Of a stretch of 31,857 nucleotides of DNA, positions 197-27,749 are shown piece by piece. The first letter of the stretch is position 1; each line of letters starts with the position of its first letter. This DNA comes from a virus (Duplodnaviria > Caudoviricetes), in the IMG/VR virus record IMGVR_UViG_3300036833_000173, positions 1-31,857 of that record. One strand, written 5' to 3'. The notes under the pieces were generated by a model. It did not search any database. It was not told the origin of the DNA and was given only the letters and a program-made list of their open reading frames with translations. Made by a program: the position numbers and the translations under genes.

Positions 197-496
197 CTAG
201 GATGATAGCCTTAGTCGACGATTATTTGCCTGCTGTTTTCGGGTTGCCCAACGACAATTTTCGGGAGTGTAGTTGCCGTTGTTATCAACACGATCAAGCG
301 TCATGCCTGCCGGTCTTGGTCCCATGTCTTTCAGAAAATTTTCAAAGGACCACCATTGAGACCAAACAACAATGCCGCGTCCACCGTAGTATTCGAACCC
401 TGTAGCTTTAGAATTAGTGCATCGACTGAGCATGGACGCCCAGGATGTGTATGTGGGCGTACCGATCCAATGACGAGAGGGACTGTATCCAGCCAT
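197..496 (-). CDS. Phage HNH endonuclease (short, 99 aa)
   Basis: Typical phage HNH-family string: W..M..RC...YYGGRGI....[37 protein letters not shown]. Confidence 0.85.
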
Positions 497-578
497 GGCT
501 TAAGGCCCCAAAAATATAAAAAAAATAAATTTTAAAATTTTGGCAAAAATGTGGCAAATAGAACGAAAGGAGAACAAC
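497..578. promoter_or_regulatory. AT-rich divergent promoter region for HNH and tasA/array; RBS AAGGAG at 567-572
   Basis: A/T tract (aaaaatataaaaaaaataaattttaaaatttt) in an otherwise GC-rich genome, between divergent genes. The SD sits 6 nt before the GTG at 579. Confidence 0.5.
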
Positions 579-1454
579 GTGACGGACCATACGAACAACG
601 AACATAGCCCATCGATCCGGCGGTTGAGCCGCGATCTGGTCAATGCGGCCATGACCATGTCCGCCGAGGAGGCCAGGTATCTGGTCGATAACTATTACGT
701 CCTGCAGGAGGGCCGGAAGCGGGCCGACAACCAGGCCCGCAGCATGGGCAAGGAAGAGCCCCATGTTCTGATCAGCTGGCTGGCCGAGCAGTCCGATACC
801 TTGGAAGGCCAGATCAAGCGGGCGCTAGACCGCTACACCGATACCCTAGCGCCGGGGCGGTGGATGAAATCCCTCTATGGGGTTGGTCCGGTGATCTCGG
901 CCGGGCTGTGCGCGCATATCGACATCGAGCGGGCGCCGAGCGTCGGCCATATCTATTCCTTCGCCGGCATTGCCGGATCGGGCCAGAAGCCCTGGAAGAA
1001 GGGCGAGATCAGGCCGTTCAACGCCGAGCTGCGGACCTTGTGCTGGAAGATCGGCCAGAGCTTCATGAAGTTTAGCGGCCAGGAGGAATGCCTCTATGGC
1101 GGTCTGTATCGGGAGCGCAAGATCTTCGAGATCGCCAACAACGAGAGTGGTGCACTGGCCGATCAGGCCAAGGCGATCCTGGAGGCCAAGAACTTCCGCA
1201 AGACCACCGACGCCTACAAGGCCTATTCCGCCGGCAAGCTACCGCCTGCGCATGTCGATGCCAGGGCGCGGCGTTTTGCGGTCAAGCTGTTTCTGGCGCA
1301 TCTGCACACGGTGATGTACTTCGACCACTACGGGGTATTGCCGGCGCATCCCTATCCGATCTCCCATCTCGGCCATGTGCATCATCTGCCGGTGCCCAAT
1401 GCGAATGTGGTCGCTGGCTTGGAGGAGGCCTTGCGCAAGCATGGCATGATGTAA
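579..1454 (+). CDS. tasA: TasA-like Nop-domain RNA-binding protein (IS110 C-terminal/Nop fold, no RuvC or HNH), 291 aa
   Basis: N-terminal coiled-coil (YYVLQEGRKRADNQ), IS110/Nop-like GVGPVISAGL and SVGHIYSFAGI, then FNAELRTLCWKIGQSF, HVDARARRFAVKLFLAHL and PYPISHLGH. There is no N-terminal DEDD/RuvC domain. Its stop codon overlaps the first unit of a dual-repeat array. Start placed at GTG 579 using the SD. Confidence 0.85.
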   Translation: MTDHTNNEHSPSIRRLSRDLVNAAMTMSAEEARYLVDNYYVLQEGRKRADNQARSMGKEEPHVLISWLAEQSDTLEGQIKRALDRYTDTLAPGRWMKSLYGVGPVISAGLCAHIDIERAPSVGHIYSFAGIAGSGQKPWKKGEIRPFNAELRTLCWKIGQSFMKFSGQEECLYGGLYRERKIFEIANNESGALADQAKAILEAKNFRKTTDAYKAYSAGKLPPAHVDARARRFAVKLFLAHLHTVMYFDHYGVLPAHPYPISHLGHVHHLPVPNANVVAGLEEALRKHGMM

Positions 1455-2937
1455 GCCATTAAGTCCGAGACAGCCCAATGAAGAAGAGCGAGCCATGTCC
1501 ATCGAGAAAACCCAGGCACAGTGAGCGAGCCACTCCACGGGAGACGATCCACTCCATTGAAGCGAGCCATCATGCATGAGAAGCCCCACACCATAGGAGC
1601 GAGCCATTCATAAGGAGACGACCCATTGACCAGGAGCGAGCCAGATGCAGTGAGAAACTCCATCTGTATCGAGCGAGCCACCGAGCAGGAGAAACCCCAG
1701 GTCCCTTGAGCTAGAGTGAGCCAACCACCCGGAGAAATACCAACAAGGGAAAGCGAGCCAGCATTCGTGTGAAACCCCATGGATCGCGAGCGGGCCATGA
1801 ACAGGTGAGATAGCCCAAATGTCCGGAGCGAGCCACGGTCGCTGAGATGCCCCAAAAAAGATGAGCGAGCCAAGTAACTGGATGATCCAACACCGGTGAG
1901 CAAGCCAGTATTCATGTGAAACCCCATAGAGCGCGAGCGAGCCAATCTCCGCGAGAAGACCAGCACCATAGAGCGAGCCACTAACGGCGCGAAAGCCCAT
2001 TCCCACTGAGCGAGCCATCAGCTGCGCGATAACCCTAACCCACTGAGCGAGCCAATGCTGTCGAGACAACCCAACAAGCCGGAGTGAGCCACCGATAGCG
2101 AGATGACCCAAGGAGCGTGAGCGAGCCAAGAAAGTCGCGACAACCCAAGCCTATTAAGCGAGCCATTCATCGCGTGATAACCCCAGGCATTGAGAGCGAG
2201 CCATTATCAGTGTGAAATCCCAAGCACCATGAGCGAGCCAGTGCCTAAGAGAAATACCATCTGCATCGAGCGAGCCAAGTGAACAGAAACGATCACGTCG
2301 CGAGAGCGAGCCATGAGCACAGAGATAGCCAACGCTAAAGAGCGAGCCAAGGATTATGAGAATTCCCACACTCATGGAGCGAGCCAACAGTGCAGCGATA
2401 GCCCAAGTGCAAAGAGCGAGCCAAGGATTATGAGAAGACCCAGTAGATGGGAGCGAGCCACAAATTCGGTGAAACACCAGCTTGTCGGAGCGAGCCAAGA
2501 CGCTTCGAGATAATCCAAGGCGTGCGAGCGGGCCACAAATCCGGAGAAGTACCAGCTTGTTGGAGCGAGCCACTCGTCACGCGAAGCCCCATGAACATCG
2601 AGCGAGCCCAGAGCGGTGAGACGGCCCATTAAACTAGAGCGAGCCACCGAGAGGGAGATCGCCCATCAAAAGAGAGCGAGCCAAAAAGGGTGAGACGAAC
2701 CAGATCTATGGAGCGAGCCATTCATCTTGAGATAGCCCAAGCTGGAAGAGCGAGCCATACTGACCGAGAAAACCCACACGAGGAGAGCGAGCCATTCGCT
2801 TAGTGACAGACCATGTGACTGGAGCGAGCCAAGTTGAATGCGACATCCCAAAACAGATGAGCGAGCCAGCGAGCAGGAAAAAGCCCAAAGACAACGAGCG
2901 AGCCATCAAAGAAGAGAAAGCCCATGCCTGAGGAGCA
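1454..2937 (+). repeat. TIGR-like tandem interspaced guide-RNA array, 40 units of ~37 nt, each with two 8-nt variable spacers
   Basis: Parsed by hand as AGCCA + spacer A (8) + loop repeat G(A/T/C)GAnnnNCCA (11) + spacer B (8) + GAGCG. Unit 1: agcca ttaagtcc gagacagccca atgaagaa gagcg. Unit 40 starts at 2901. 32 units are exactly 37 nt; the others are 35-43 nt. Confidence 0.92.
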
Positions 2938-16359: not shown

Positions 16360-16797
16360 ATGAGCATCGCTACGCTGCTCAACATTCCCGACCATCCCGC
16401 CGGCCGCAACGCTTTCTCCTTCGAGCATGCGATGGCGCATCGCGAATACATGGCGGTGATGGGCCCGCTGGATCAGTGGACCTTGATGCCCTATTTCATT
16501 GATCCGGCGCAGTACCAATCGCGGCCGGCGACGAAATGGCCGCTCAATCACCAGCAGGCGCATAATGATTTCACGACCTACCTGCCCGCCGACGCGAGCG
16601 CGCTAGTAGCGGGTATTCCGAGCAGCCAGATTCTGCTAGAAAGCGACCTCAACCAACCGGACAGCCGGACATGGTGGACATTCGTCAATCACCAGGAGCA
16701 TTTAACGGCCAACGAGGCAATCCTGCCGATCCCCGACCAGGATCAGCCCCCTCCTTGGTGGGTGCAGCCCCCGAGACGGGCTCTCGTGTTCTGGTAG
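16360..16797 (+). CDS. Hypothetical His-containing 145-aa protein
   Basis: ORF with coding-like codon usage and three HxxxH motifs (HAMAH, HQQAH, HQEH-like). Confidence 0.7.
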   Translation: MSIATLLNIPDHPAGRNAFSFEHAMAHREYMAVMGPLDQWTLMPYFIDPAQYQSRPATKWPLNHQQAHNDFTTYLPADASALVAGIPSSQILLESDLNQPDSRTWWTFVNHQEHLTANEAILPIPDQDQPPPWWVQPPRRALVFW

Positions 16798-20248: not shown

Positions 20249-22446
20249 TGGCCAACGGCAACCCCGATCCCGGCATCGAGAGACCGATTCCGCCGGATTA
20301 CCAAAATCCGGACCCGCGCATCGACAGGCCGGTTCCGCCTGGTTACCGCAATCCCGATCCAGGCATCGATCGAACTGGTTACATGCAGCTTGTCGACCCC
20401 AATGCGCCCCCTGATCCCAGGCGGGTGCTCATGGATCTATTCCGGCAAAGGCTGCCGCAGTTCCAGCAAGGCCGGCAACCCTTTCCGATGATGCCCCCGA
20501 ACGCGGCGGCGGACTCGCGCTGGGGTGACGAAACCGGCCCGGTCGAGCAACCGCCAGCTGCACCCGAGTACCAGCCCCGCCTGCCTTACCGGACACCGTG
20601 GCGGGCGCCATTCGATTTGCCGCGCCCGCGCGACAGCAGCCAGTGGGGCGGCGAGTGGTGGGCGACCGCCGGGGCCAAGAACTATCCGGGCAACATCCTC
20701 AGCCCGTCACTGCCGTCGCCGACGGAAGCGATGGGCATTTTCAACCGAGGCGGGCAGTCGCTGCAGCAATGGGGCTCGCGCGGGGTCGGGATGTATGCCG
20801 GGCAAATGTCGCAAATGGCGCAGCGGCTGGCGCCCTATCTCGACATGCTCAGCAAGGGCGCGTTCTCGAAAAACTTCCTCGCCGCGCGGCTCGGGTCGCT
20901 GAAGGCGATGGAAGCGGAGATGCAGATCAACGCCGAGATGGGGGTCGAGAAGCACAAGAAGGAATTACTCGAAACCGGCAAGATCTTCACGCTGTGGAAG
21001 TCCGGCATGTACGGCGACGGTGCGGCCGGCGACGAGCGGGCCAAGCAGGAGCTGGAGAACTGGGCCCTTGAGAACGACCACAAGAACCTCTACAACATCA
21101 TCGTCAACAAGGGGATGGGCGCGGCCGAGAACTGGTTGAAATGGGAAGACCAGCAGATGCTGGCGATCGAGGCCGCCTGGACCAGCTCGAAGAAATCCTC
21201 CGAGACCGGCAAGAGCGAACTGACGACGGACACGCTGGGAGGCGAGATCGGCGGGACCGATGTTACCAAGACAGCACCGACCGCCGAACCCAAGATCGCG
21301 GGAGCTGAACCAACGCCCCCCGGCGCCAAAGCGCCGGAAACCCCCGACATCGCCGCCACCAATGCCGAGATTTCCAAAGCCCACATGCTGACGCCGGCCG
21401 GGCTCGACGCAGCGCGTAGCCTGCTCCATGGCGATTCGAAGACCAGCGACTATCACGGCGATCTCGGGCAAAAGCACGTCGTCGACGGCGCCAACGACTT
21501 TCGCGCCAAGATCGACAGGATCGCCACCGGGCCCGGCACGCCGCAACAGAAGATCGACGCGATCCGCGGCGTCGATCCCGCAACCGCCGACAATGTCGAA
21601 AGCATCGGCAGCTACCGTGGCGACATCCAGTCGATCCAGGCAGGCGGTGGCTATCGCGGGCAAATCGAGGGATGGACCAAGTCGGTCTATCGCGGCAAAT
21701 ATGACCGCAATAATTTCAAGGCCGCGCAGCGCTTCGTCGACCCGGCCTCGCAGACCCAAAGAGAGATCCAGCGCATCGGCCTGATCGCCCAAGCCTATAC
21801 CCAGGTGAATGAAGCCTCGAAGGACCTCAACGAAAACAGCAGTCCTCCGAAGAATGCGATCGACAGGTTCATTGCCACCAATACCACCGGCGACCCGAAA
21901 TGGGATAAGATGTACTCGGCGATCCGCACCTATGTGATGCAGACGGTTTCGGCACAAAGCCTGACCGGCGTCACCCGGCAAGGCCTAGTCGACGGCATGA
22001 TGAAGTACATCAGCCCGACGTCGTCCCCGCGCTCGATCCGGGTATCGCTGCAGGTCGAAGGCAGGGATGTCGCCGCCGCCTTGAGTAACCTTGAGTCCGA
22101 TTGGCATCGGATCAGGCCAGGCGATGCACTGCCTGGCATAACCAAGGAAAGCTATGACGGGTTGAGCGCCGTCGTGCGCGCCAACGCCTACACGGGGCAG
22201 ATCCCCGATGATGCGCCGCTGCCGATGCGCAACGCCAGCAAGGACCCGAGCAAGGCCTATACCCGCTTAACCGACGAGCAAAAACGACCTACAGTCACAT
22301 TGAAGGATTATAGCGGTGCAAGAAAGTTCATTGCCGCCAACAAGGACAGTCTTGATCCCGCCATCAAGGCCCAGGTCCAGGCCAATATGTTACTACTAGG
22401 CACGCAGCTAAACATGCCAGGAGCGCCTGACGAAGATGGCCAATGA
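20248..22446 (+). CDS. Internal virion/ejection protein, 732 aa
   Basis: TGATG coupling; size and position; Pro-rich N-terminal repeats. Confidence 0.6.
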   Translation: MANGNPDPGIERPIPPDYQNPDPRIDRPVPPGYRNPDPGIDRTGYMQLVDPNAPPDPRRVLMDLFRQRLPQFQQGRQPFPMMPPNAAADSRWGDETGPVEQPPAAPEYQPRLPYRTPWRAPFDLPRPRDSSQWGGEWWATAGAKNYPGNILSPSLPSPTEAMGIFNRGGQSLQQWGSRGVGMYAGQMSQMAQRLAPYLDMLSKGAFSKNFLAARLGSLKAMEAEMQINAEMGVEKHKKELLETGKIFTLWKSGMYGDGAAGDERAKQELENWALENDHKNLYNIIVNKGMGAAENWLKWEDQQMLAIEAAWTSSKKSSETGKSELTTDTLGGEIGGTDVTKTAPTAEPKIAGAEPTPPGAKAPETPDIAATNAEISKAHMLTPAGLDAARSLLHGDSKTSDYHGDLGQKHVVDGANDFRAKIDRIATGPGTPQQKIDAIRGVDPATADNVESIGSYRGDIQSIQAGGGYRGQIEGWTKSVYRGKYDRNNFKAAQRFVDPASQTQREIQRIGLIAQAYTQVNEASKDLNENSSPPKNAIDRFIATNTTGDPKWDKMYSAIRTYVMQTVSAQSLTGVTRQGLVDGMMKYISPTSSPRSIRVSLQVEGRDVAAALSNLESDWHRIRPGDALPGITKESYDGLSAVVRANAYTGQIPDDAPLPMRNASKDPSKAYTRLTDEQKRPTVTLKDYSGARKFIAANKDSLDPAIKAQVQANMLLLGTQLNMPGAPDEDGQ
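20260..20373 (+). repeat. ~2.5 in-frame 45-bp repeats encoding NPDP(G/R)I(E/D)RP(I/V)PP(D/G)Y(Q/R)
   Basis: Visible in the translation NPDPGIERPIPPDYQ NPDPRIDRPVPPGYR NPDPGIDR. Confidence 0.8.
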
Positions 22447-24067: not shown

Positions 24068-24751
24068 TTAGGGCAGATCCCGCCATGGGAAGACGCCCGG
24101 CATGGTCATGGCAGGGTCCTCCCGCATCAGCGGAATGTAATCGCCGAGTGCGCGCGCCTTCTCGGTCTGCTCGTCGAGATCGTCGCAGAACTTGTCCAGC
24201 AGATCGTCCATGAGCTTGATGTAAGCCTTGTCCCTTTGCGTGTAATCGTATCGCGAAGGCATCCTCGGATGATAGGCAAAGAAATGCACGGCCTCCCAGC
24301 TACCGACCAGCAGCTGGCCCTGGACTTGGGGCCGGTAATCATTGCCGGGGCCGTCGAGTAGATAGCCCATCTGCGTCCATGGCGCGGGGCACTTGATCTC
24401 CACCGCCTCGACCGATCCCTTGACCAGGCAGTCGGGCGAGCAGCCGATCCGGCCGTCGTCCGAAGTCACGAACGAGATGCGTTCCAGGATCAGTTCCTTC
24501 TTTTCCTGGAACTTGATGATGGCCTCGGCCTCCATCTGCTTGCCCCACTCCATCCATGGCGTGTTGGTATTGTCCTCCATGGTTTCGTTCAGCAACCGCT
24601 CGGCCACGAGCTTGTACAGGTAGGGTCGCGCCTGCGCCGACGGCTTGCCGGTTGGGGTGATGATTTTGTGAAACTGCGAGGCGGTGGGGATACCGCGCCG
24701 CAGCTTCCACCACGCCTCTGTGCCCTGATCGACGACGTGAAGCTTACTCAT
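24068..24751 (-). CDS. YqaJ / lambda-exonuclease family recombination nuclease
   Basis: QGTEAWWKLRRGIPTAS, MEWG..ME, GCSPD, VEIKCP and QVQGQL motifs. Confidence 0.92.
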   Translation of the reverse strand: MSKLHVVDQGTEAWWKLRRGIPTASQFHKIITPTGKPSAQARPYLYKLVAERLLNETMEDNTNTPWMEWGKQMEAEAIIKFQEKKELILERISFVTSDDGRIGCSPDCLVKGSVEAVEIKCPAPWTQMGYLLDGPGNDYRPQVQGQLLVGSWEAVHFFAYHPRMPSRYDYTQRDKAYIKLMDDLLDKFCDDLDEQTEKARALGDYIPLMREDPAMTMPGVFPWRDLP

Positions 24752-24861
24752 GATATTTGGTTCATCTCGTCTTCAATGGTTCGCTTCTTGTGCATGGGGA
24801 TTTCTCGCCGTCACTGGCTCGCTCGTGCGGCTTGGTCTATCTCCAGTAACGTGGCTCGTTC
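24745..24861 (-). repeat. Satellite TIGR-like mini-array, 3 units
   Basis: Reverse complement reads gaacg | agcca cgttactg gagatagacca agccgcac gagcg | agcca gtgacggc gagaaatcccca tgcacaag aagcg | aacca ttgaagac gagatgaacca aatatcat gagta. Confidence 0.88.
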
Positions 24862-24874
24862 AGTAAATGCCCCG

Positions 24875-25066
24875 TTATTGACACATCCAACCAACGCAAC
24901 CGCATTCCTGATGGCAAATCGTCCGCCCCACACTATCGGTGTAACAAACCGTCCGGCACGATACTTGATGGACGTTAGGGCGCGGCGTGTAGTTCTGCCT
25001 AGCCAGCGGCAGAGCCTGCGCAGTGGTTGACAGCAACAGGCACACGACAGTTAACAAGTACTTCAT
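24875..25066 (-). CDS. Small secreted Cys-rich peptide (63 aa)
   Basis: Signal peptide MKYLLTVVCLLLSTTAQA; mature part has six Cys; purine-rich SD AGGGGTG. Confidence 0.65.
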   Translation of the reverse strand: MKYLLTVVCLLLSTTAQALPLARQNYTPRPNVHQVSCRTVCYTDSVGRTICHQECGCVGWMCQ

Positions 25067-25154
25067 TTCTTCACCCCTTCTTTTGTTCACGATTCGTACT
25101 GATATTCCATAATCTGGCGCCTTAATGTTTTTTCCAGATTTTCCCCCCAAATTT

Positions 25155-25244
25155 TGGCTCGCTTACACGTCTTGGTCTGTCTAGGCGGACGTGTGCGCAT
25201 TCTGGCTCACTCAGTGGGGGTGGGACTTCTCCGGTCGCATGGCT
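25155..25244 (-). repeat. Satellite TIGR-like mini-array, 2 units plus a terminal AGCCA
   Basis: Reverse complement reads agcca tgcgaccg gagaagtccca cccccact gagtg | agcca gaatgcgc [acacgtccgcct] agacagacca agacgtgt aagcg | agcca. Confidence 0.82.
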
Positions 25245-25899
25245 AGAACGGAATATCGTCATTCATATCCTCGTTCTTGAGGTTCTCGGTCCTGACCTCA
25301 CGGATGCCCTCGCGCTCGTCCCAGCCGACGATCTCGAAATGCGGCCGGGGGACATCGCCGAACTTGCGGGTCGGCATCATGACCTTGCCGAGCTTGATGA
25401 TGGGCTGGCCGCAGCCGGCTTGCTTCGCCGCCTTGCGGGCATAGGCCGAACAGAGATCGGCCACCGCCCGCTTACCGCCAAAGGACGAGGCCACTAAGAT
25501 GTTTACGTCGCCGGTCGTGAGGTCCTCCAGCGGCAATAAATACTGGAATACCCAGGGATCGGACGGCCTGCCATCCAGGCCGATCGGCCAATGCAGCTCC
25601 TCATGATCCGGCAGCTCGTCGCGCTCGGGGGCGCGCTCGCCCTTGTTGACACGGTAGACCTTGCGCTCGGCAACGGTACCGTTGAGGAACTTGACCCAGG
25701 TCTTGGTCCAGCCCACGGCATGGGCGATGAACCGCGAACCCAGGGGCACTTCCTCGCCCTCGCGGTAATAGACGCCCTTCTTGAATTTCAGCATCTTGTC
25801 GAACCCCGCGTCTGCGCTCGCCGCATCCAGGATCAGCTGGGCCTCATTCCATTGCGTGGAGGGGATGTTGTGGGATTTTGCTTCCGATAGTTTGTTCAT
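25243..25899 (-). CDS. Single-stranded DNA-binding-like protein
   Basis: Acidic C-terminal DMNDDIPF tail; located in the recombination module next to YqaJ; ATGA overlap with the upstream gene. Confidence 0.75.
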   Translation of the reverse strand: MNKLSEAKSHNIPSTQWNEAQLILDAASADAGFDKMLKFKKGVYYREGEEVPLGSRFIAHAVGWTKTWVKFLNGTVAERKVYRVNKGERAPERDELPDHEELHWPIGLDGRPSDPWVFQYLLPLEDLTTGDVNILVASSFGGKRAVADLCSAYARKAAKQAGCGQPIIKLGKVMMPTRKFGDVPRPHFEIVGWDEREGIREVRTENLKNEDMNDDIPF

Positions 25900-26099: not shown

Positions 26100-26105
26100 G
26101 GCCAT

Positions 26106-26168
26106 TCCCCGGTTGCATGTATATGAATATATATTGACCAACACTTGTCAAGAGGATAAGTCACACAG
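26106..26168. promoter_or_regulatory. Divergent promoter/operator with TTGAC-N8-GTCAA inverted repeat (26134-26151)
   Basis: AT-rich gap between divergent genes; perfect TTGACA on the - strand and TTGACC on the + strand. Confidence 0.6.
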
Positions 26169-26510
26169 ATGAGCACAAACAAAATCGCCAAGCCCGATAC
26201 CCGCCATGAGCGGGCGCTGAAGCTGGTCGACCGCCTGATCAAGATTTCGCCGAACGAGGGATTGACCAGGACGGCGAGAAGGCTGCGCGCCCAGCTGACG
26301 CGACTGCCGATGCGGGAAGTCCTGGACAAGGTGCCGGGACAATCGATCTCGTCCAAGTGCCGTTATCTCGGCATCACGCGGCAGTCCTATTATGCATGGC
26401 TGGCGGAGGATCACCGGCCCAACAAGGAGCAGGCCAAGGCGCTGGAGGAGATCACCGGCTACGATGCCGAACTGATCCGCCGCTTCGGCGAGACTTCCGA
26501 GCCCGCCTAG
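26169..26510 (+). CDS. HTH (Cro/XRE-like) transcriptional regulator
   Basis: SISSKCRYLGITRQSYYAWL...RPNKEQAKALEEITG helix-turn-helix pattern. Confidence 0.75.
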   Translation: MSTNKIAKPDTRHERALKLVDRLIKISPNEGLTRTARRLRAQLTRLPMREVLDKVPGQSISSKCRYLGITRQSYYAWLAEDHRPNKEQAKALEEITGYDAELIRRFGETSEPA

Positions 26511-26613
26511 CGGCGTTCAAGGCTATCGCCACGATCTGGCGATGGGATCGTGGTCTGCTGCCGTGGTGAGCCAGCTCATGTATATTAGCTTGAACGCTAC
26601 GACCCAATGGCAT
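26452..26613 (-). CDS. Small basic phage protein, 53 aa (absent from the ORF track)
   Basis: SD AGGAGG; MPLGRSVQANIHELAHHGSRPRSHRQIVAIALNAARRARK resembles the common phage MPL...NI.EL...G....Q.VAIAL..AR family. Confidence 0.7.
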   Translation of the reverse strand: MPLGRSVQANIHELAHHGSRPRSHRQIVAIALNAARRARKSRRSGGSVRHRSR

Positions 26614-27055
26614 CGGAGTATCCTCCTATGCGGGCATTAGAGGCAAAGTTATGAGCACGTATAGCGGCTACCAACTTTTCTCGATGGATCGTTTCATCTT
26701 TGGAGATAACGACATACCGATGCGAAATCTTAGCAGTGCCCGCCAACTCAATCGCAAGTTCCGCCCTTTTCTTTTTGATTTTCAGGTAAGGGAGAATCAT
26801 GGAAAGAAACGTGGCGGCTTTCTTACAGAACAACACCCAGTCATAGATAGGCTTGCCGCTCTTCGTGGTACGTTTAATACGTTTAACATGACCGCCGAAA
26901 ACATCAGCCAGCCAGTCGAGAGGCTCTCTGTCACACATGTCAACGCGGACACAAATGGAAAAGCTGTTACGAACTTCATTGTGTCGCCGCGCTGATATGG
27001 AGCCCTCACCGTCAATAAGCCCGGCGGCATAAGCTTTGTCTACTTCTAACGGCAT
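26597..27055 (-). CDS. Free-standing LAGLIDADG homing endonuclease (152 aa)
   Basis: AYAAGLIDGEGSI motif, FGG.V, and FL..ILPYL.IKK..AEL; lower GC than the flanks. Confidence 0.9.
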   Translation of the reverse strand: MPLEVDKAYAAGLIDGEGSISARRHNEVRNSFSICVRVDMCDREPLDWLADVFGGHVKRIKRTTKSGKPIYDWVLFCKKAATFLSMILPYLKIKKKRAELAIELAGTAKISHRYVVISKDETIHREKLVAAIRAHNFASNARIGGYSDAIGS

Positions 27056-27065
27056 AGGAGGCTCC

Positions 27066-27749
27066 ATGGCCTGGAGAGTGGCAAAGTCCCTGCTGAAGTT
27101 TCGCGAGCAAATCAACGCGGCGTCGCCCCACCGCAACAAATCTTCCGACGGAACCGTGGGAGATGCAGCCCACGCATCGCGTTCTTCGGATCATAACCCA
27201 TGGGTCAAGGATGGCTCGATGGGAATCGTCACCGCGATGGACATCACCCACGATCCGGGGACCGGCGTCGATACCTGGGCGCTGGCCGAGTTCTTGCGGG
27301 TGCAGAAAGATCCTCGCGTAAAATACGTTATCTCCAACAAACGCATCTGGTCGAGCGTGAGCAACCCCTACCAGTGGCGCAAGTACACCGGATCGAACCC
27401 GCACAGCTCGCACATGCATGTCAGCGTCCACAGCACCAAGGCGCACTATGACAGCGAGCGTGACTGGACTATCCAAATCGGCAAGGCGCCGCCCGACCCT
27501 GATGATGTAAGGGCGCGGCCGGTCCTCAAGCTCGGCAGCCGGGGCGACGAGGTCCGCATCGTGCAGAACATACTGGGCATCACGGTAGACGGCATCTTTG
27601 GCCCAGCGACCGAAGCCGCCGTGAAGAAGTTCCAGACCGCCGCCAAGATTCCAGCAGACGGCATCATCGGTCCCGCCACCTATGCCGCCTATGACAAAAT
27701 CGAGCAGAGAGGTGACGGCGAGAAGGAGGGCGACGCGCTCGAAGAATAA
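27066..27749 (+). CDS. Endolysin: Zn-peptidase-like (M15-type) domain plus C-terminal peptidoglycan-binding domain
   Basis: SDHNP...AMDI...NPHSSHMHVS metal ligands; LKLGSRGDEV..VQ..LG..VDGIFGPATEAAVKKFQ...DGIIGPAT matches PG_binding_1; SD AGGAGG. Confidence 0.85.
   Translation: MAWRVAKSLLKFREQINAASPHRNKSSDGTVGDAAHASRSSDHNPWVKDGSMGIVTAMDITHDPGTGVDTWALAEFLRVQKDPRVKYVISNKRIWSSVSNPYQWRKYTGSNPHSSHMHVSVHSTKAHYDSERDWTIQIGKAPPDPDDVRARPVLKLGSRGDEVRIVQNILGITVDGIFGPATEAAVKKFQTAAKIPADGIIGPATYAAYDKIEQRGDGEKEGDALEE

Follow-up and report, generated by a model that had tools for sequence, protein, structure and literature searches.

The window analyzed here is a whole virus record of 31,857 bp. It is a linear contig with no end repeat, and CheckV estimates its completeness at 62%; the one sequencing run listed for the record is a soil metagenome. 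The contig encodes a terminase, a portal, a major head protein, a primase-helicase, a lysin, and a YqaJ exonuclease. It also encodes TasA and a dual-repeat TIGR array, which we will call the main array (Table 1). TasA is related to the structures of TaTasR (PDB 9mty, E = 2.6e-12) and TasH (E = 8.1e-9) and has a weak match to Transposase_20 in Pfam. The N-terminal nuclease is absent, so this genome has the nuclease-free Nop-domain Tas of a TIGR-TasA system. In a sequence alignment, Y272 and H279 of TasA align with the RNA-processing pair of SpTasH (Y289 and H296), so TasA has, by this alignment, the Y/H pair expected for guide processing. Among cultured phages, TasA matched only Salicola phage CGphi29.

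Some units of the main array are 35, 36, or 38 nt long, and directly after the unit at 1676–1718 (plus strand) there are 6 inserted nt that copy a portion of the edge repeat. In five pairs of units within this array (2345/2419, 2456/2531, 1639/2236, 1676/2864, and 1831/2827), one or both spacers are identical or differ by a single mismatch, suggesting duplication and half-unit exchange. We also considered a link between tas and the divergent HNH endonuclease gene, and dropped it: in other tas records, the homologues of the HNH gene are 4.6–55 kb away from tas, and the two genes are probably unlinked.

Further units, which we will call satellites A and B, lie on the minus strand in two gaps: one between an SSB-like gene and a small ORF, and the other between that ORF and yqaJ. 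There are four well-formed TIGR dual-repeat units and one malformed unit. A first-pass annotation of this DNA had described five regular units here; their position, strand, and repeat grammar were correct, but one of the five is irregular (48 nt from edge to edge, or 11 nt too long). The annotation's distance of 22 kb from tasA holds if measured from the end of the main array at 2937 (21.8 kb), while tasA itself is 23.3 kb away. (As the contig is linear and incomplete, the distance from the array the other way round is at least 7 kb.) The cluster next to yqaJ does start at 24745, as annotated, but its units end at 24856 instead of 24861, and the remainder (24857–24861) is a near-match to half of an edge repeat.

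Table 1. Features of the tasA locus and of the satellite locus.
Feature	Position	Strand	Description
Free-standing HNH endonuclease gene	197–496	-	Divergent from tasA
tasA	540–1454	+	Nop-domain protein without a nuclease domain; the start is alternatively the ATG at 549
Main dual-repeat TIGR array	1454–2937	+	40 units, mostly 37 nt; starts inside the tasA stop codon
YqaJ-like recombination exonuclease	24068–24751	-	Pfam PF09588, E = 1.5e-18
Satellite B unit 3	24745–24781	-	Degenerate, 37 nt; score 17.9; two repeat mismatches; 3' edge truncated
Satellite B unit 2	24782–24819	-	38 nt; score 26.7; 5' edge full, 3' edge with one mismatch
Satellite B unit 1	24820–24856	-	Well-formed, 37 nt; score 30.8; 5' edge with one mismatch, 3' edge full
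63-aa ORF between the satellites	24875–25066	-	Hydrophobic N-terminus, Cys-rich end, no family
AT-rich spacer from satellite A to the small ORF	25067–25154	-	No sigma-70 promoter or terminator called on the minus strand
Half edge repeat at the end of satellite A	25155–25159	-	Lone, directly after the malformed unit
Satellite A unit 2	25160–25207	-	Malformed, 48 nt from edge to edge; both edges full
Satellite A unit 1	25208–25244	-	Well-formed, 37 nt; score 28.4; 5' edge half, 3' edge full
SSB-like conserved 218-aa phage protein	25243–25899	-	Acidic tail; 274 homologues
AT-rich divergent region with inverted repeat and plus-strand HTH gene	26100–26510		Same gene order in relatives

We scored units with a position model from 33 regular units of the main array, which themselves score 25.3–32.2. 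After the four satellite units, the next real match outside the main array scores 12.0, so the motif scan that the annotation had called for leaves these four as the only strong matches elsewhere in this contig. When the rest of the contig was shuffled 200 times, the best scores had a mean of 10.5 and a maximum of 22.0. By chance, a fixed pattern with 2 mismatches allowed would be expected 0.10 times in the entire window. Together, the shuffles and this expectation rule out chance matches as the source of the satellites.

The four units have the complete dual-repeat grammar: edge repeats and loop repeats come in alternation, with box C (CCA), box D (NG), and two short spacers. Their lengths of 37, 38, 37, and 37 nt match the main array. 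The edges are full or have one mismatch on both sides of the unit at 24856, the unit at 24819, and the malformed unit; the units at 25244 and 24781 are truncated on one side, as is usual for terminal units. As had been annotated, none of the satellite spacers is identical to a spacer of the main array (36 of its 40 units could be parsed), and the closest pair differs at 6 of 16 positions. With no spacer shared between the satellites and the main array, the putative copying event could not be traced in this genome.

The units are fitted closely between the genes. The TAG stop codon of the SSB-like gene overlaps the first repeat of satellite A and supplies part of it, and the last unit of satellite B overlaps the ATG of yqaJ at 24751. 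The annotation had missed that cuts in the edge repeats would cut the operon's mRNA and that the last unit covers the start codon of yqaJ. An assembly error is unlikely: one unbroken Logan contig from the listed run covers 24627–25773 and matches exactly, though that run may be the source of this DNA, so the two may represent the same sample.

At neither satellite was a promoter or a terminator called on the minus strand, so the satellites would be transcribed as part of a leftward operon. The transcript that would carry them likely originates in the AT-rich divergent region at 26100–26510, where an inverted repeat (26100–26170) lies before the HTH gene and is likely an operator and the point where the leftward operon starts. 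Between the HTH gene and the lysin there is another homing-type endonuclease ORF (phrog_5046, 26597–27076, minus strand). Calling the 218-aa protein SSB-like is plausible, given its acidic tail and a distant atlas lead at 0.84, which was the only lead; there was no match in Pfam or the PDB. The 63-aa ORF is a putative accessory gene that the codon-model gene caller did not pick. Folding of the satellite RNAs is unremarkable (z between +0.2 and −1.5). We also noticed that the AT-rich stretch after satellite A resembles the stretch before tasA, but we discarded this likeness (P ~ 0.05).

The contig's sole tas match spans 573–1400, which agrees with the annotation that there is no tas gene beside the satellites. 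In a canonical locus, the array is directly beside tas and is followed by an intrinsic terminator. The satellites have no tas match near them and no terminator called on the minus strand, and therefore they are TIGR units but do not form a canonical TIGR-Tas locus. About 38% of the genome is missing from the record, and this part could encode another tas.

In the malformed unit (25207–25160), the excess of 11 nt is in the spacer A region, and of the 8 nt directly behind spacer A, 7 agree with the reverse complement of spacer B. We derived the geometry of a target from the published model, with spacer A on one strand and spacer B on the other, and from the geometry of IS110 bridge RNAs. With this geometry, the malformed unit would hold its own predicted target. 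The shuffle P value for the self-match is about 0.001 at this placement and 0.009 anywhere in the insert. Just 1 of 18 long irregular segments has this arrangement; the best of the other 17 has 2 mismatches. The single mismatch of the malformed unit faces the 5'-most base of the spacer, a position at which a mismatch is tolerated for spacer A in SpTasH (PMC13421893). The 19-nt insert has no match in viral_contigs, and the folding of this unit is not exceptional (z = −1.5). The self-match was noticed after the fact, and the unit may represent a product of acquisition or repair that was trapped, or else a hairpin that arose by chance.

Origin of the satellites and relatives of the locus

The four satellite units fit the phage's own model of tas-adjacent repeats best, by 30 bits over the best of 32 other genomes, which rules out a foreign TIGR type. 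Units of 37 nt are in the minority in the arrays that we fetched (141, versus 1,142 segments of 36 nt). Judging from their repeats, the satellites are derived from the resident TIGR system of this phage.

The annotation had suggested comparing the interval between the SSB-like gene and yqaJ in relatives that lack tasA. A search with YqaJ alone gave no relative in viral_contigs, but alignment of the SSB-like protein did. Among 11 syntenic viral records (only one of them over 90% complete), none had a tas match, although the same query matched 38 loci in another search, and none had a TIGR unit anywhere, with our own genome as the positive control. Among metagenome loci, 43 have the SSB-like gene and 18 of these also reach yqaJ. 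No unit was found in the gap between the SSB-like gene and yqaJ in the 11 viral records or in the 18 metagenome loci, some of which are duplicates. In the relatives, this gap varies from an overlap to about 2 kb, so it is a variable slot. Across the viral collection and the metagenome loci, we found no relative with both this gene order and tas, and no second phage with units at this site.

Arrays far from tas in other phages

A pattern scan of 15 of the 64 parts of the viral collection gave 145 loci, many of which have no tas within 3 kb. When whole records were searched, tas was found somewhere in 28 of 49 records, about half of which had entered via short loci that possibly adjoin tas, and in 12 of the 15 records that are at least 90% complete. 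We scanned 43 records in full: 41 of at least 85% completeness, and two (G023 and G022) that were picked for showing satellites and are excluded from the rate. (The counts also exclude G102, G103, G104, G002, and G036, and three more eligible records are outside the 43.) The shuffled control for this unit scan had 0 false hits in 2.6 Mb.

Forty of the 43 records have tas, and 38 of them, all of at least 85% completeness, were counted for the rate. Arrays at least 5 kb from tas were found in 12 of the 38, a set that is enriched for unit-rich genomes, as most came from the pattern scan; three tas records with a single seed unit were scored as negatives. Of the 12, 10 have arrays at least 10 kb from tas, and 6 have them on the opposite strand. 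The remaining three of the 43, all near-complete, have arrays and no tas match, not even at E = 10 (G029 at 21052, G030 at locus L100, and G052 at 49472, where the array is 1.5 kb from the end of the record). These speak against a strict link between arrays and tas. A dispersed case that we noticed is a 116-kb phage (G019, L195–L200) with one tas and ten clusters of units over 70 kb, on both strands. Its clusters mix 36- and 37-nt units, and several of its satellites are preceded by a −10-like hexamer. Many TasA homologues of 40–55% identity (L007–L010, L012–L015, and L020–L037) lack an array with this kind of repeat within 10 kb, and their repeats may be of a different kind or their arrays may lie farther away.

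Across these records, satellites are usually in the sense orientation: 28 are in the sense of both neighboring genes, 2 are against both, 8 are mixed, and 5 are at the ends of records. (Gene orientations are from an approximate codon-model caller, which replaced a noisier heuristic, and a twin record, G041, was dropped.) Satellite repeats score 29.8 on average, as compared to 29.3 near tas, so they are not decayed, and the genome's own model is the best match for the satellites in 9 of the 12 testable genomes; both results are partly circular because the detection model and its threshold included satellites. A −10-like hexamer lies just before 13 of 41 satellites, as compared to 16% of the intergenic background, which is a weak excess.

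Although our phage lacks them, shared spacers are found elsewhere. Of 204 satellite units, 7 (in two genomes) have a spacer identical to one in a different array of their record, while about 0.2 are expected from cross-genome pairs. (The raw count was 11 of 208, from which we removed four terminal-repeat duplicates.) Often just spacer A or just spacer B is in common, as expected from a crossover in the loop repeat. In G023, an identical unit is present in two opposite-strand arrays that are 7.6 kb apart. Spacers shared between distant arrays point to copying by recombination, and where the arrays are far apart and in opposite orientations, they are direct sequence evidence that units and half-units move in this way. 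The annotation's idea that units can spread to distant intergenic sites is supported by 12 of 38 tas records, with traces of copying.

The annotation had also proposed a guide repertoire split in time, with the satellites on a probably early transcript. The other phages do not support this. In a survey of neighboring genes (29 of 52 proteins had a match), satellites are next to genes for DNA polymerase, a clamp loader, RecE/RecT-like proteins, an SbcC-like protein, methyltransferases, and an integrase, and also next to late-type genes for the major head protein, head protease, terminase, and portal. Early genes and late genes both have satellites next to them, with no early-only pattern. Early guides would also need early TasA, and the sequence does not date the expression of tasA.

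Comparison to published TIGR systems

SpTIGR-TasH from Salicola phage CGphi29 and FpTIGR-TasA (Faure et al. 2025, PMC12045711) have the same order of edge repeat, then spacer A, the loop repeat, and then spacer B as our phage, as well as a Nop-domain Tas with the Y/H pair. The repeats of the SpTIGR array (L398) are nearly the same as those in our phage, and both have 8 variable nt per spacer. Our phage differs in having 37-nt instead of 36-nt units and in lacking the nuclease domain. Furthermore, its satellites are over 20 kb from tas, on the other strand, and within a different operon, and no terminator was called behind them.

In the literature, arrays are described as lying upstream or downstream of tas, and the mining behind them covered 5 kb on each side (PMC12045711). 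TIGRFinder (Xu et al. 2026, bioRxiv 10.64898/2026.09.09.750476) reports flexible placement: upstream of tas, downstream, on both sides, or inside it. It annotates arrays "surrounding tas loci," and its dual-repeat seeds require at least 4 box C/D intervals, so distant satellites of one unit would fall outside it. The word "orphan" is absent from the main text. The TIGRFinder catalogue describes TasA as a guided repressor and counts the acquisition of spacers and the existence of "arrayless" tas genes among the open questions; the emergence of arrays and the acquisition of spacers are called unknown in both papers (PMC12045711 and bioRxiv 10.64898/2026.09.09.750476). A published parallel is the PlTasA locus, whose three subarrays are all expressed and processed, so that separate subarrays can feed one TasA, but that locus is of the stem-loop type and its subarrays are about 450 nt apart beside tas (PMC12045711). 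In our literature searches and in the passages that we read of PMC12045711, PMC13421893, and bioRxiv 10.64898/2026.09.09.750476, 10.64898/2026.08.11.744272, and 10.64898/2026.09.22.753630, we found no description of distant satellite TIGR arrays.

Outside of TIGR systems, guides that are encoded apart from their effector and used in trans are familiar from isolated CRISPR arrays and from dispersed box C/D snoRNA genes, and short C/D-box guides are cut out of host transcripts. The satellites have no leader, no Cas1-Cas2 adaptation, no K-turn, and no fibrillarin; the likeness is one of layout only. A link to snoRNAs is also drawn in PMC12045711.

A proposed role for the satellites, and alternatives

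We propose that this phage's own TIGR units were copied by recombination through their 9–11 nt repeats into two gaps of the leftward operon, perhaps by the phage's own YqaJ and strand-annealing functions, and that their spacers then turned over by half-unit exchange. The satellites would be transcribed by read-through of the leftward recombination operon. The Y272/H279 pair of TasA would cleave within the edge repeats, which would free the satellite guides from the operon's mRNA. The nuclease-free TasA would then bind DNA targets of 16–18 bp, with spacer A on one strand and spacer B on the other, and would block transcription, probably in the host or in a rival element; we place the target there because the contig does not hold one. 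We give this joint proposal, in which seeded, read-through, and excised satellites would add two to four guides in trans, a probability of about 0.55.

It is reasonable to suppose that the guides are used in trans, because the processing residues are retained in TasA and because short arrays are known to be processed: Tas proteins are bound to units after processing, and arrays with only one to three units also undergo processing when their edges are full (PMC12045711). SpTasH cuts its precursor with Y289 and H296 (PMC13421893), and a nuclease-free TasA, though not this one, represses transcription at guided sites (bioRxiv 10.64898/2026.09.09.750476). Depending on how strictly full edges are needed, mature guides would likely come from only two to four of the five units. 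As for targets, the best candidates in the contig have 3–5 mismatches (the four regular units never do better than 3, with two geometries and with 8- and 9-nt spacers), and none in the relatives rise above control levels. In 4.1 Mb of fetched phage DNA, there were 27 rows of matches, many of them duplicated, as compared to 13, 19, and 11 for control geometries, which is not distinguishable.

The main rival to guides acting in trans is that the units act in cis. TasA would bind and cut the operon's mRNA at the edge repeats and remain on the last unit, which would lower the expression of yqaJ or split the transcript, and the guides would be a by-product. The layout fits this: satellite A starts in the upstream stop codon, and unit 24781–24745 overlaps the ATG of yqaJ and lacks part of its 3' edge, so that after a cut at 24781 this unit would remain as the 5' leader of yqaJ. 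The RNA-cutting Y/H pair is retained, and G023 has a single unit between RecE-like and RecT-like genes. However, an end that falls on a predicted start codon, or no more than 12 nt from one, is seen for just 18 of 126 arrays, and the filling of stop-to-start gaps, which is also seen beside tas, may reflect the tight spacing of phage genes. Also, a single binding site would suffice for regulation in cis, yet every unit has distinct spacers, and many satellites elsewhere are long arrays of 17–27 units. We consider control in cis to be unlikely. We think it somewhat less likely still that the units are a neutral spill-over, misplaced by recombination into a variable accessory slot, tolerated, and decaying unused. 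The gap is certainly plastic in the relatives (from an overlap to about 2 kb), none of which keeps units at this site; two of our five units are damaged (one malformed and one degenerate); and 19 of the 43 satellites in our set are single units. But three of our units have perfect or near-perfect repeats with spacers that are unrelated to the main array, which fits selection on the repeats or continued turnover, and the preference for the sense orientation (28 versus 2) is strong.

The malformed unit raises another alternative, that this is an acquisition site: TasA-dependent capture would take a contiguous target behind an AGCCA-like seed and split it into spacer A and an inverted spacer B, with the 48-nt unit as a trapped intermediate. 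The self-match, with its published target geometry and its mismatch at a tolerated position, speaks for this, and arrays start in the stop codon of a long ORF more often than the 3% background for AGCC (5 of 49 satellite arrays and 24 of 84 tas-proximal arrays). However, it is one case, seen after the fact and without a counterpart in the other 17 long irregular segments; its insert matched nothing in the viral collection; the unit may be no more than a hairpin or a product of slippage; and TasA has no catalytic domain for DNA. We rate this as the least probable of the readings considered here. A bolder scheme, which also seems quite improbable to us, is that TIGR units, like dispersed C/D-box snoRNA genes, are self-spreading cassettes seeded into transcribed gaps all over a phage genome, with one TasA drawing guides from many operons and cutting their mRNAs, and with the 48-nt unit as a trapped step of acquisition in which a contiguous target, captured whole, was being split.

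We favor seeding by recombination and use of the guides in trans. The satellites are TIGR units of the resident TasA's type in a distant operon, one case of a common and apparently undescribed layout that bears on how TIGR guide arrays spread, which is likely by the copying of units into transcribed intergenic gaps. With distant arrays in about a third of the phages that we checked, catalogues of guides are undercounted, and distant arrays may explain some of the tas genes that were reported without an array. Since units are embedded in operons, TasA may also help to process the mRNAs of ordinary phage genes. Of the leads at this locus, the self-target unit is the most striking, and a 500-bp construct from here would join use in trans, regulation of yqaJ in cis, and the self-target unit.

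We also noticed several single units and unusual spacers in the other phages. The single unit of G023 (at 48305, L208) between RecE-like and RecT-like genes parallels the placement in a recombination operon in our phage. In three phages, a single unit directly follows promoter-like sequence (G022 at 16773, G060 at 42668, and L094 at 2640), and in G022 and G060 this unit is upstream of the portal gene. The spacers in G022 and L094 are similar, so a conserved regulatory guide is possible. Finally, in G023 (33233 and 33672), G085 (7345), and G074 (7006), a spacer equals the edge repeat itself, which looks like the repeat sequence copied into a spacer slot.
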